A program made the position numbers and the translations under genes. Source: Promethearchaeia archaeon (lineage in GTDB: Archaea; Asgardarchaeota; Lokiarchaeia; Sigyniarchaeales; SOKP01). Taken from it: DNA of 13,520 bases. Positions 5,017 through 9,247 of the stretch are shown here, piece after piece. A model generated the notes under the pieces. The model searched no databases. It worked only from the letters and a program-made list of their open reading frames with translations, and was not told the origin of the DNA. The first letter of the stretch is position 1. Each line of letters starts with the position of its first letter. The stretch lies in the NCBI GenBank assembly GCA_046497275.1, contig JAWOFX010000030.1, positions 1-13,520 on the forward strand. Direction: 5' to 3'.

Positions 5017-5877
5017 TTAATTCTTAATTTCTTCAAAATATTTTATTAGATTTTTAAAAACGTAATCCACAGGTCCAAAACCTTGAGTTGCGCATCTCGA
5101 AAGTATTTCTTCAAGTAATTCATGATTTTTAATTTGAGAAGAGGGAGTAATATTTAGTTCTCGTATATTATAGAAACTTCTCCAAAAGTTTGTAGGCCAA
5201 TTGATAAGAAGACTGAGGCTTTCGTTATATTTTTTTTGCCCCTCCTCGCTCAATTCAAGTCCATCTTCAATAGTGTAGTAATTCTCATCGTCTTTCTTTT
5301 CTATAGAAATTATTCCATCTTTTTCAATCTCTTTCATTTTTGATTGTATTGTTTCCATATCTAACTCATCATTGAATATTTTATTCATATTTTTCAATAT
5401 TTCTTCATCTTTCTGACTTTTTAGTTTAATCATTGTATAATTTCGGGCTAAAATATTATATTTGAGAGGAACAGTTTCATGATCTATTTTGTTATATTGT
5501 ATAAGATTGCCTAATATTTCCTTCGCGACTAAATATTTGATTTTAGTCTGATCTTCTTTAGAGTATTTAGTTTTGAAAATTTTGGAGCTAAAGTACTCAC
5601 CATAAAGGGCTTTTAAAAGATTTTTAATCGCATGGTATCCATCAGCAACAGCATTTGACATTATTTCCAATGTTTTTATGCGATAATCAATATCTGAGAG
5701 AAATTTATCTTTATCTAACGGAATTTGACGAATAAGGTGAGGCTTAACATCAATTTGACTTAAATATTCATTCCACTTCTGCTGAAAACGAAAATTCTGA
5801 GTTTTTGCAATCCCAACAAGCTTTCGTATTACATCATATAATCTCTCTAAGAAGAATTTTTCATTAATTTCTGTCAA
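5017..5877 (-). CDS. Hypothetical protein with a possible central winged helix-turn-helix
   Basis: 286-aa ORF with a TTG start preceded by AAGGGA. The segment DEEILKNMNKIFNDELDMETIQSKMKEIEKDGIISIEKKDDENYYTI has a helix-helix-'GII'-beta-hairpin pattern like a wHTH. Confidence 0.7.
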   Translation of the reverse strand: MTEINEKFFLERLYDVIRKLVGIAKTQNFRFQQKWNEYLSQIDVKPHLIRQIPLDKDKFLSDIDYRIKTLEIMSNAVADGYHAIKNLLKALYGEYFSSKIFKTKYSKEDQTKIKYLVAKEILGNLIQYNKIDHETVPLKYNILARNYTMIKLKSQKDEEILKNMNKIFNDELDMETIQSKMKEIEKDGIISIEKKDDENYYTIEDGLELSEEGQKKYNESLSLLINWPTNFWRSFYNIRELNITPSSQIKNHELLEEILSRCATQGFGPVDYVFKNLIKYFEEIKN

Positions 5878-7478: not shown

Positions 7479-7859
7479 ATGAGATTAATTCATTTTGCTG
7501 TAGCTTCAAATTCAGAAGAAGAAAGCGACAGATTTTTTATAACATTATTAAATCTTCAAAAAGCAAGAGATTTTTCTGTTCCTTCTAGATTAATGGAAAA
7601 ATTTTTTGAAGTTCAGAAAGAGCAAAGAATTATAAGTTATGAAAATGAGGATTTTGCAGCTGAGGTATTTATAACCGGGGATCAAAGTAAACGAAAAGAT
7701 CTTTTTACTCATGTTTGTTTAGAAGTAGAAAATAGAGATAAAATGGTTAATGAAGCGCAAGAATTGGGATTCAAGATAATCAAAGTTCCGAGAGAAAATA
7801 GTGAGGGGTATTACTTATTTATACAAGATGGTTTTGGAAATATTTATGAAATTAAGTAA
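7479..7859 (+). CDS. VOC (glyoxalase/bleomycin-resistance) family protein
   Basis: N-terminal IHFAV...SDRFF..LL, mid HVCLEV and C-terminal LFIQDGFGNIYEIK. The paired beta-alpha-beta-beta-beta modules carry H/H/E metal-ligand positions. Confidence 0.85.
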   Translation: MRLIHFAVASNSEEESDRFFITLLNLQKARDFSVPSRLMEKFFEVQKEQRIISYENEDFAAEVFITGDQSKRKDLFTHVCLEVENRDKMVNEAQELGFKIIKVPRENSEGYYLFIQDGFGNIYEIK

Positions 7860-7940
7860 TTTGAAATAAGGGGAATAACATAAATTTTTAAAACTGTTTT
7901 TTTATATAATTTCTTGAACTACTATTAGTTCCAGTAGGGG

Positions 7941-8750
7941 TTGAATCAATTGCCATCATCATCATCATATAAATTTAAAATAGTAATGGGAGGATCAGAT
8001 CCAGAGAAACTTCCATTTTTTGAGAATTCTTTTTTTAATGGAACAGATTTCTCTCATATTGGCATTAATATAAACCCTATTGAATGCATAACAAGTTTTG
8101 GAGACTCTTATCTCTTTATTTTTTGGCATCTTAACCAAATGCAGAGATTTGAGTTTATGTTATCCTCTTTTTGCCACGGAGCATATGGTGGAATAATTTG
8201 TGTCGACAGATCTCATTTCGAATCTTATAAAGAAGCTATTAATTGGATTAAGATATTTCAAAGGCAGATTAAAAAGATTCCATTAATAATCTTCAGTTTC
8301 CAATCTAAAAATTCTCAAAATGAAGTATCAAATAAACAAGTGAGAAAATTAATAGAAGTATATAATCTTAAGGGCCTTTTTGGAATTTCTTCAGATGAAA
8401 AAATTAATTATCTACTTAAAAAAGATTTCTTCAGATTTGTTATTAAGATATTTAATGAGTCTAATGTAAATGAACAGGAGTTTTCAATTATGTTCCCAAC
8501 AGAAGAGAAGGATTTTATTAAATTCTTTGAAAGTTTTTCAACATGTCCTATTTGTAAAAAGAAAAATCACATTGAGAGTCTGAAAGAATTCTATTTTAGT
8601 AAAAGAGATGATATAATAAGACTAAGAGACAAATTTTTTGATTTGATGGATAAATCTTCTTATTTAGAAGAAAGATGGAGTAATTCATTGGATCTTGGGA
8701 TTTTATGTTGTTCGTGCTATAAAAAATATTTTAGTGATTCGGGTTCCTAA
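7941..8750 (+). CDS. Rab/Ras-like small-GTPase-fold protein with degenerate G-motifs and a C-terminal CxxC...CxxC domain
   Basis: YKFKIVMGG, IGINI, LFIFW, QRF, SSFCHGAYGGIICVD and ESYKEAINWI align colinearly with the Rab consensus. The C-terminus has C202PIC205 and C256CSC259. The TTG start is preceded by AGGGG. Confidence 0.8.
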   Translation: MNQLPSSSSYKFKIVMGGSDPEKLPFFENSFFNGTDFSHIGININPIECITSFGDSYLFIFWHLNQMQRFEFMLSSFCHGAYGGIICVDRSHFESYKEAINWIKIFQRQIKKIPLIIFSFQSKNSQNEVSNKQVRKLIEVYNLKGLFGISSDEKINYLLKKDFFRFVIKIFNESNVNEQEFSIMFPTEEKDFIKFFESFSTCPICKKKNHIESLKEFYFSKRDDIIRLRDKFFDLMDKSSYLEERWSNSLDLGILCCSCYKKYFSDSGS

Positions 8751-8771: not shown

Positions 8772-9185
8772 TCAAAAAAGTTCCGCTTTCTTAATGATTG
8801 TTTTATGATCAAAAGCTAATTTAAGATTTGGAAGTTTTTTTAATGGAATTATGTCCAATTCCGCAGCATCATCTTGCGCTTTTGGTTTCTCATTTTTGGT
8901 TATTGGTTCGCACATATATGCGACACTTACGGTATGTCCTCTTGGATCCCTGTCCGGTTTAGAAAAAACACCGATTAATTTTTTGATTTGGACATTGATA
9001 TTAGTCTCCTCCTTCGCTTCTCTAATACACGCTTCTTCGACGGTTTCTCCAATATCTACAAATCCTCCAGGTAAGGCATATTCACCTTTAAAAGGGGGAT
9101 TCTTTCGTTTTATAAGAATAATATGATTAGAATCATATAAAATCACGGCATCAACTGTTAACAAAGGGGTTTTTGGTTTAGCCAT
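8772..9185 (-). CDS. Nudix hydrolase, similar to archaeal ADP-ribose pyrophosphatase (MJ1149 type)
   Basis: Nudix box GGFVDIGETVEEACIREAKEETN plus LIKRKNPPFKG, PDRDPRGH, DDA and LAFDH. ATG 9185 (MAKPKTP) is preferred over the TTG at 9227. Confidence 0.9.
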   Translation of the reverse strand: MAKPKTPLLTVDAVILYDSNHIILIKRKNPPFKGEYALPGGFVDIGETVEEACIREAKEETNINVQIKKLIGVFSKPDRDPRGHTVSVAYMCEPITKNEKPKAQDDAAELDIIPLKKLPNLKLAFDHKTIIKKAELF

Positions 9186-9247
9186 TTTTTCAATTATAAG
9201 ATTTTTAATTCTAATAAAATTTTCCAAAAATATAATTATTAAATAGT

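Follow-up and report, generated by a model that had tools for sequence, protein, structure and literature searches.

PseudoGTPases have so far been documented mainly in eukaryotes, and the small GTPases of Asgard archaea have been studied as forerunners of eukaryotic trafficking switches. Surveys of Asgard small GTPases trim the sequences to the G domain and leave aside the fast-evolving members. The closest described systems to the protein reported here come from these two fields. Among eukaryotic class-i pseudoGTPases, CENP-M, p190RhoGAP (pG1/pG2) and AAGAB/Irc6p (psGD) all keep the fold of the G domain while their G motifs are eroded beyond nucleotide binding; they are conserved, and a scaffold role in protein interactions is known or proposed for them (PMC12490416, PMC5593906, PMC10211241). 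The class scheme is that of Stiegler and Boggon (2020), as cited in PMC12490416. The Asgard RasL/Rab-like GTPases, where RasL is the Klinger 2016 grouping as used in bioRxiv 10.1101/2024.02.28.582541, have the same Ras-superfamily fold, keep G1 to G5 and bind GDP/GTP; they are represented by the structure of Thor-Rab (7EZB, PMC10933270), which is without a C-terminal extension. Database searches in the same study returned no homologues of the Rab escort protein or of Rab geranylgeranyltransferase (PMC10933270). Our own full-text literature search, combining pseudoGTPase with archaea or Asgard, found no description of an archaeal pseudoGTPase.

The window analysed here, a stretch of 13,520 nucleotides from a Lokiarchaeial genome, encodes a protein that compares with both groups. 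Like the eukaryotic class-i pseudoGTPases, it is conserved, is predicted to keep the G-domain fold, has G motifs predicted to be eroded beyond nucleotide binding, and is proposed to serve as a protein-interaction scaffold. Unlike them, it is archaeal, independently derived and fused to a lineage-specific Cys5-His module, and motif-bearing positional orthologues survive, so that its conversion can be traced step by step. The RasL/Rab-like GTPases are its closest relatives by descent, but it is without any of their motifs, and its family carries a folded C-terminal module, unlike Thor-Rab. By sequence and structure it best matches Rab8, Rab5, Rab11 and Ran, at an identity of about 20-24%, and it resembles Rab at the core positions IGI, FxxW, RF, xxxGA and the D in beta4. 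Unlike Rab and Ran, however, it has no canonical nucleotide site and, unlike Rab, no terminal prenylation signal. Its archaeal origin, its lineage-specific metal module and its surviving motif-bearing positional orthologues are uncommon assets for a pseudoGTPase. The features of the locus are as follows.

7479 to 7859, plus strand: upstream glyoxalase/VOC-fold gene, the same-strand neighbour throughout the family
7901 to 7909, plus strand: A/T-rich TATA-like box TTTATATAA, about 40 nt ahead of the start codon, read from the sequence
7936 to 7940, plus strand: Shine-Dalgarno-like AGGGG, 9 nt upstream of TTG 7950, likewise read from the sequence
7950 to 8750, plus strand: whole gene, G-like domain plus Cys5-His module, 266 amino acids from TTG 7950
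7968 to 8456, plus strand: small-GTPase-fold domain without nucleotide-binding motifs, residues 10-172
7989 to 8012, plus strand: degenerate G1/P-loop GGSDPEKL, from alignment to Rab8A and orthologues
8127 to 8138, plus strand: degenerate G3, HLNQ replacing DxxG, from alignment to Rab8A and relatives
8292 to 8309, plus strand: degenerate G4, FSFQSK replacing [NT]KxD, from alignment to Rab8A and relatives
8478 to 8747, plus strand: predicted C-terminal helical metal-binding module, residues about 180-269
8772 to 9227, minus strand: convergent Nudix hydrolase gene, then alaS; the conserved downstream edge of the syntenic slot

The mechanical open reading frame of this protein spans 7941-8750 on the plus strand in frame 1, and the residue numbers of the earlier note on this DNA count from TTG 7941. 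All the strings quoted there (FKIV, IGINI, LFIFW, QRF, SSFCHGAYGGII, D89, ESY..AINWI, GGSDPEKL, His39, HLNQ and FSFQSK) are found in this frame. The second TTG, at 7950, is the likely start because the AGGGG element upstream, the N-termini of the orthologues and the ESM Atlas record agree on it. The spacing of AGGGG suits 7950 and not 7941, the orthologues all start with M and four residues ahead of a conserved YKFK strand, and the ESM Atlas record begins at the 7950 start, which is residue 4 in the 7941 numbering. An alternative gene call (P0002, 254 amino acids) begins at ATG 7986 and would delete the conserved first beta strand. The TATA-like box may be the gene's own archaeal promoter. The interval 7968-8456 that had been assigned to the protein does cover the G-like domain, but the protein runs about 95 residues further, with a zinc-type domain extending to 8750.

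Homology of the G-like domain to the Ras superfamily is secure, with scores that stay below the curated Pfam threshold. A phmmer search against all PDB sequences gave Rab8A as the best match (E 1.8e-6, residues 9-165), followed by Ran/Gsp1 (2.6e-6), Rab35, Rab5 and a Thorarchaeota Rab (Thor-Rab, E 2.3e-4). The Pfam Ras model (PF00071) reaches E 9e-4 and 19.2 bits, where the gathering cut-off is 21.6, and the Roc model reaches E 2e-3, also below its curated cut-off; a motif-bearing relative of the same architecture (P0011) scores 75 bits with Pfam Ras versus 19 bits for the window protein. Ten family members went into the AlphaFold model, which shows a mean pLDDT of 78 and the strand and helix order of a G domain (b1, b2, b3, a2, b4, a3, b5, a4, b6, a5). 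A confident a1 helix is absent from this model, residues 19-41 being non-helical at pLDDT 53-61. Foldseek matches the model to Rab8, Rab5, Rab11 and Ran with E of about 1e-9 and TM scores of 0.70-0.77 normalised by target (0.73 to Rab8/5/11), the first match being nucleotide-free Rab8 in the Rab8:Rabin8 complex. The predicted fold is therefore that of a small GTPase, which was the structural outcome on which the earlier proposal depended. The description of the protein as Rab-like holds for the colinear resemblance at RabF-like core positions, but the label is loose because Ran/Gsp1 scores as well as Rab8A, and Rab-defining features are unconfirmed. The genome carrying the window protein has 16 further Ras-like matches, so the protein is one of many paralogues. 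A two-copy homodimer prediction (alignment A1) scored 0.07 against a mark of 0.42 and is evidence neither way.

As had been proposed, the window protein has none of G1, G3, G4 and G5 and no switch-I Thr. Aligned with Rab8A by HMMER, it has GGSDPEK plus gaps opposite the P-loop GDSGVGKT, His39 opposite Thr40 of switch I, HLNQ opposite DTAG (G3), FSFQS opposite GNKCD (G4) and ISSDE opposite ETSAK (G5). SFQSK is likewise the counterpart of GTKSD in other alignments. The degenerate P-loop GGSDPEKL is acidic and contains Pro, and its Lys is variable among orthologues. Throughout the motif-less clade the Ser/Thr position of the P-loop is Leu or Ile, followed by an invariant Pro-Phe, and the G3 region reads WH/S/Y-L-N/S-x; the syntenic motif-bearing relatives have WDLK[V/D/G/A] as G3 and GTKxD as G4. 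The degenerate strings are themselves conserved in the clade, as GG.SDPE or variants, FWHLN or FWSLS, and SFQS or IYQS. A predicted G-domain fold with G motifs that appear too degenerate for binding fits the definition of a class-i pseudoGTPase.

The protein belongs to a two-domain family. A profile search of 1.84 billion representatives gave 63 clusters at E <= 1e-30, most of them colinear over both domains (profile positions 1-262). All family members share the C-terminal signature CPxC-x4-H ... CCxC; GxxxxGK[ST] and [NT]KxD are present in many of them and absent from many others. We built a maximum-likelihood tree of 59 two-domain members, using a quick search whose supports are to be taken cautiously. 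In this tree the window protein falls in a monophyletic clade of eight motif-less sequences (SH-aLRT 99), which is sister (95) to an intermediate that has lost G1 and G4 but retains the Trp-Asp of G3; the two are embedded (97) among sequences carrying G1, WD and G4. Elsewhere in the tree, another clade has likewise lost G1 and G4. The loss of G1 to G5 had been described as coordinated, and this part of the earlier note does not stand: the loss is stepwise, since even the motif-bearing relatives, with G1 and G4 in place, have no G3 Gly, no catalytic Gln and no clear switch-I Thr. Their alpha1 segment is also short. Because these relatives are so atypical, the ancestor may already have been unusual, and perhaps was never a classical switch. 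The motif-less and motif-bearing sets have conserved columns in common in three regions: DSYLF..W in the interswitch strands, F.F...SF..GA in the former switch-II/alpha2 segment, and CPIC..NH...LK.FY / G..CC.C in the module.

In the syntenic orthologues with G1 and G4 kept (L021-L028, L035 and L043), WDLK[V/D/A/G] stands in place of DxxGQ and the alpha1/switch-I segment is very short. These proteins may bind nucleotide and yet not be switches of the classical, hydrolysing kind.

The frame and its orthologues are conserved by selection. Eight full-length relatives (264-266 amino acids, 99-40% identity) came from a search of 5.8 billion clustered proteins, and those of the eight that are named are all labelled Lokiarchaeota. 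Orthologues at 40-81% identity have full-length frames in every one examined, in at least three genera (g1, g3 and g11), in agreement with the earlier description of an intact reading frame. For the window protein and its 81%-identical orthologue, the one unsaturated pair (NG86, dS about 0.5-0.6), dN/dS is 0.18 over the whole gene, 0.21-0.22 for the G-like domain and 0.09-0.12 for the C-terminal module, and neighbouring genes in the same genome pair give 0.07-0.135. For the G-like domain of two other motif-less pairs the values are 0.16 and 0.28, and for the G domain of motif-bearing relatives of similar divergence they are 0.05-0.18; these NG86 values come from few pairs of AT-rich genes, most of which are saturated. 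Constraint on the motif-less G-like domain is somewhat relaxed, yet far from neutral. The orthologues are under purifying selection (G-domain dN/dS 0.16-0.28) and do not show the neutral decay expected of a pseudogene, as the earlier note had argued from the frame of the window protein.

Synteny connects the motif-less proteins to their motif-bearing relatives. Among 121 genomes of the same order that were searched, matches were found in 59, almost all in one GTDB family, and at every locus examined the gene lies between a same-strand glyoxalase-fold gene and convergent Nudix and alaS genes (glyoxalase-fold gene > X < Nudix < alaS). In genera g5, g6, g8 and g12 the gene in this slot carries GGxxGSGKT, WDLK and GTKxD; in g7 and one g5 genome it is partly eroded; in g1, the genus of the window genome, and in g3 and g11 it has no motifs. 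The same slot is thus filled by motif-bearing genes in sister genera, which makes the pseudoGTPase the positional orthologue of a motif-bearing protein. The locus may represent a natural series from small GTPase to nucleotide-free scaffold, with G1/G4-bearing, eroded and motif-less versions at one slot, all fused to the module, and we put the chance of this reading at about even. If it is true, the orthologue pair is a ready system for asking what an effector surface does without a switch.

Several observations concern the slot itself. At L042:1520-2308, in genus g5, an eroding version reads GGSFNSGKNTV with GIKAN as G4, and its congeners keep the motifs; this version suggests that motif loss recurs in the family. 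In g6 and g8 the slot holds two tandem paralogues, each a Ras-like domain plus module and both with G1 and G4 (L023:604-2307, L024:1498-3230, L037:1565-3298 and L033:1550-3223). The mechanical Nudix frame at 8772-9227 (minus strand) is 151 amino acids long from a TTG start and exceeds the called orthologues (138-140 amino acids) by about 12-14 residues, and tblastn matches to it begin at residue 9-15; the true start is probably an internal ATG (MAKPK...). We do not claim a functional link of the pseudoGTPase to the glyoxalase-fold gene or to the Nudix, alaS or sirtuin neighbours, the synteny being conserved only within one family of close relatives, and the place of the glyoxalase-fold gene, the only conserved neighbour on the same strand, may reflect that kinship.

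The second half of the architecture is a C-terminal helical module of about 85 residues with five Cys and one His (CPxC-x4-H ... CCxC). An alignment of 70 copies shows C202, P203, C205, H210, G253, C256, C257 and C259 to be invariant, and both Cys clusters are flanked by many Lys. Modelled alone, the module forms four helices and a short knuckle at pLDDT 84. A search for a solved fold with VIA-align against 48,161 PDB representatives gave nothing prominent (best Z 4.1, to the N-terminal region of RecR), its structural neighbours in the Atlas (HNH and DksA/TraR-type zinc fingers) all have TM below 0.45, and Pfam and NCBIfam have no model that matches it, the sole hint being a sub-threshold YgiT zinc finger (E 0.14). 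The metal is probably zinc, with five Cys and one His being more ligands than a single zinc ion requires. We considered the CCxC as a Rab-type prenylation signal and rejected it: it is part of the invariant CPxC/H/CCxC set in a module with a confidently predicted fold, and it lies 11 residues from the C-terminal end of the window protein and not on the flexible extreme tail. The negative searches for Rab escort protein and Rab geranylgeranyltransferase homologues in PMC10933270 are a further reason for the rejection.

A whole-genome profile search found the module in 62 of the 68 genomes of one GTDB family and in none of the 232 genomes searched from 29 other families of the phylum. In the family of the window protein the module lies C-terminal to Ras-like domains, and the order is swapped in P0073, P0086 and P0100, where it lies N-terminal to a Ras domain (82-121 bits). 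Fusions in both orders speak for a functional link between module and Ras-like domain. A stand-alone form of about 140-170 amino acids occurs in nearly all genomes of the family, and in genus g2 it is the only form seen, a fusion to a Ras-like domain having not been found there. The window's own genome encodes such a stand-alone protein of 139 amino acids (L004:1495-1914, minus strand, which is G000:C118:25095-25346), with a low-complexity helical N-terminal part followed by the CPxC...CCxC module. Two tandem copies of the module occur in open frames of 430-499 amino acids in the whole-genome search (G054:C242:8326-8796, G062:C9:726844-727326, G083:C178:2075-2560 and G053:C59:6293-6784). A word-based search for the module in proteins longer than 471 amino acids found none, a weak result given these frames.

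Taken with the motif loss, these data make it probable, in our judgement, that the window protein is a nucleotide-free pseudoGTPase of class-i type working as a constitutive adaptor. It would have kept the Ras-superfamily G-domain fold and lost guanine nucleotide binding. Its precursor at this position would have been a Ras-like protein that already had the Cys5-His module and still carried G1 and G4. In the lineage leading to the window's genus and at least two others, the Lys/Thr of the P-loop, the Asp of G3 and the NKxD of G4 would have been replaced. The module has stayed conserved, as have the interswitch strands and former switch-II/alpha2 surface of the G-like domain. Given this conserved ex-switch surface and module, the protein most likely works as an adaptor that is constitutive and independent of nucleotide. 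We speculate that the ex-switch face holds a partner that the ancestral GTPase bound in one nucleotide state only, and that the metal module may give a second contact, for localisation or with a partner. The "adaptor or decoy" of the earlier note is, in the same way, a role that we infer.

Two other readings of the conserved domain have to be weighed against this one. Nucleotide binding without canonical motifs occurs in some proteins, and the G-like domain could use non-canonical residues to bind a nucleotide or some other phosphorylated ligand, as a class ii/iii pseudoGTPase or with a re-purposed pocket, and still be a ligand-regulated switch. Its fold is intact and under selection, Lys at position 23 aligns with the P-loop Lys and some orthologues keep an Asp in the column of the G4 Asp (SFQSD); the region replacing the P-loop and alpha1 is modelled poorly, at pLDDT 53-61, which leaves room for an alternative pocket. 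However, Lys23 varies among orthologues (I/N/S/D), the Mg-binding Ser/Thr has become Leu or Ile in a loop that holds Asp/Glu and Pro, and the Asp of G3 and the Asn and Lys of G4 are gone in the whole clade, and we regard continued ligand switching as unlikely. We consider it quite unlikely that the function resides in the Cys5-His module, through nucleic-acid, membrane or partner binding or Fe-S/redox chemistry, with the dead G domain a passive appendage left from the fusion. The stronger constraint on the module (dN/dS 0.09-0.12 versus 0.21), the stand-alone form in nearly all genomes of the family, including the genus without a fusion, and the Lys-rich surroundings of both Cys clusters would all suit such a module. 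The G-like domain is nevertheless also under purifying selection and has conserved surface motifs specific to its clade, and the joining of the module to Ras-like domains in both orders speaks against a passive passenger.

A decaying pseudogene, or a frame called in error and similar to GTPases by chance, is in our view a very improbable explanation. The Pfam score under the gathering threshold and a probable start other than ATG are what one might expect of such a frame, but every orthologue examined in the three genera has an intact, full-length frame, dN/dS is about 0.2, the PDB match at E 1.8e-6 comes with a confident fold match, and the synteny is conserved. The gene shows that at least one Lokiarchaeial lineage retains under selection a G domain that is dead to judge from its sequence. 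The living motif-bearing orthologues at the same locus allow direct comparative biochemistry. The putative metal-binding module is undescribed and has been coupled to Ras-like domains more than once, which makes it relevant to the targeting of Asgard GTPases in the absence of prenylation. The two-domain family is confined to one archaeal family, which limits the reach of these conclusions.

Near-identical DNA is present in sediment and freshwater-sediment metagenomes. Contigs from the RNA libraries of two salt-lake studies match 7514-8304 at 99% or more; strand and level are not readable from them and DNA carry-over is possible, so that they give a weak hint that the pseudoGTPase gene is expressed, and no contigs from RNA libraries fall on 8305-8743. 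One salt-lake RNA contig, 7514-7993, runs from the final part of the glyoxalase-fold gene across the 90-nt spacer into the first part of the pseudoGTPase gene, and may reflect read-through or co-transcription, with DNA carry-over as the alternative. Elsewhere in the window, at 5017-5877 on the minus strand, lies a gene for a 286-amino-acid protein with no Pfam match on record; it is 289-293 amino acids long elsewhere and is kept in all syntenic contigs between the genes for a DTD-like deacylase and a class-III aminotransferase.
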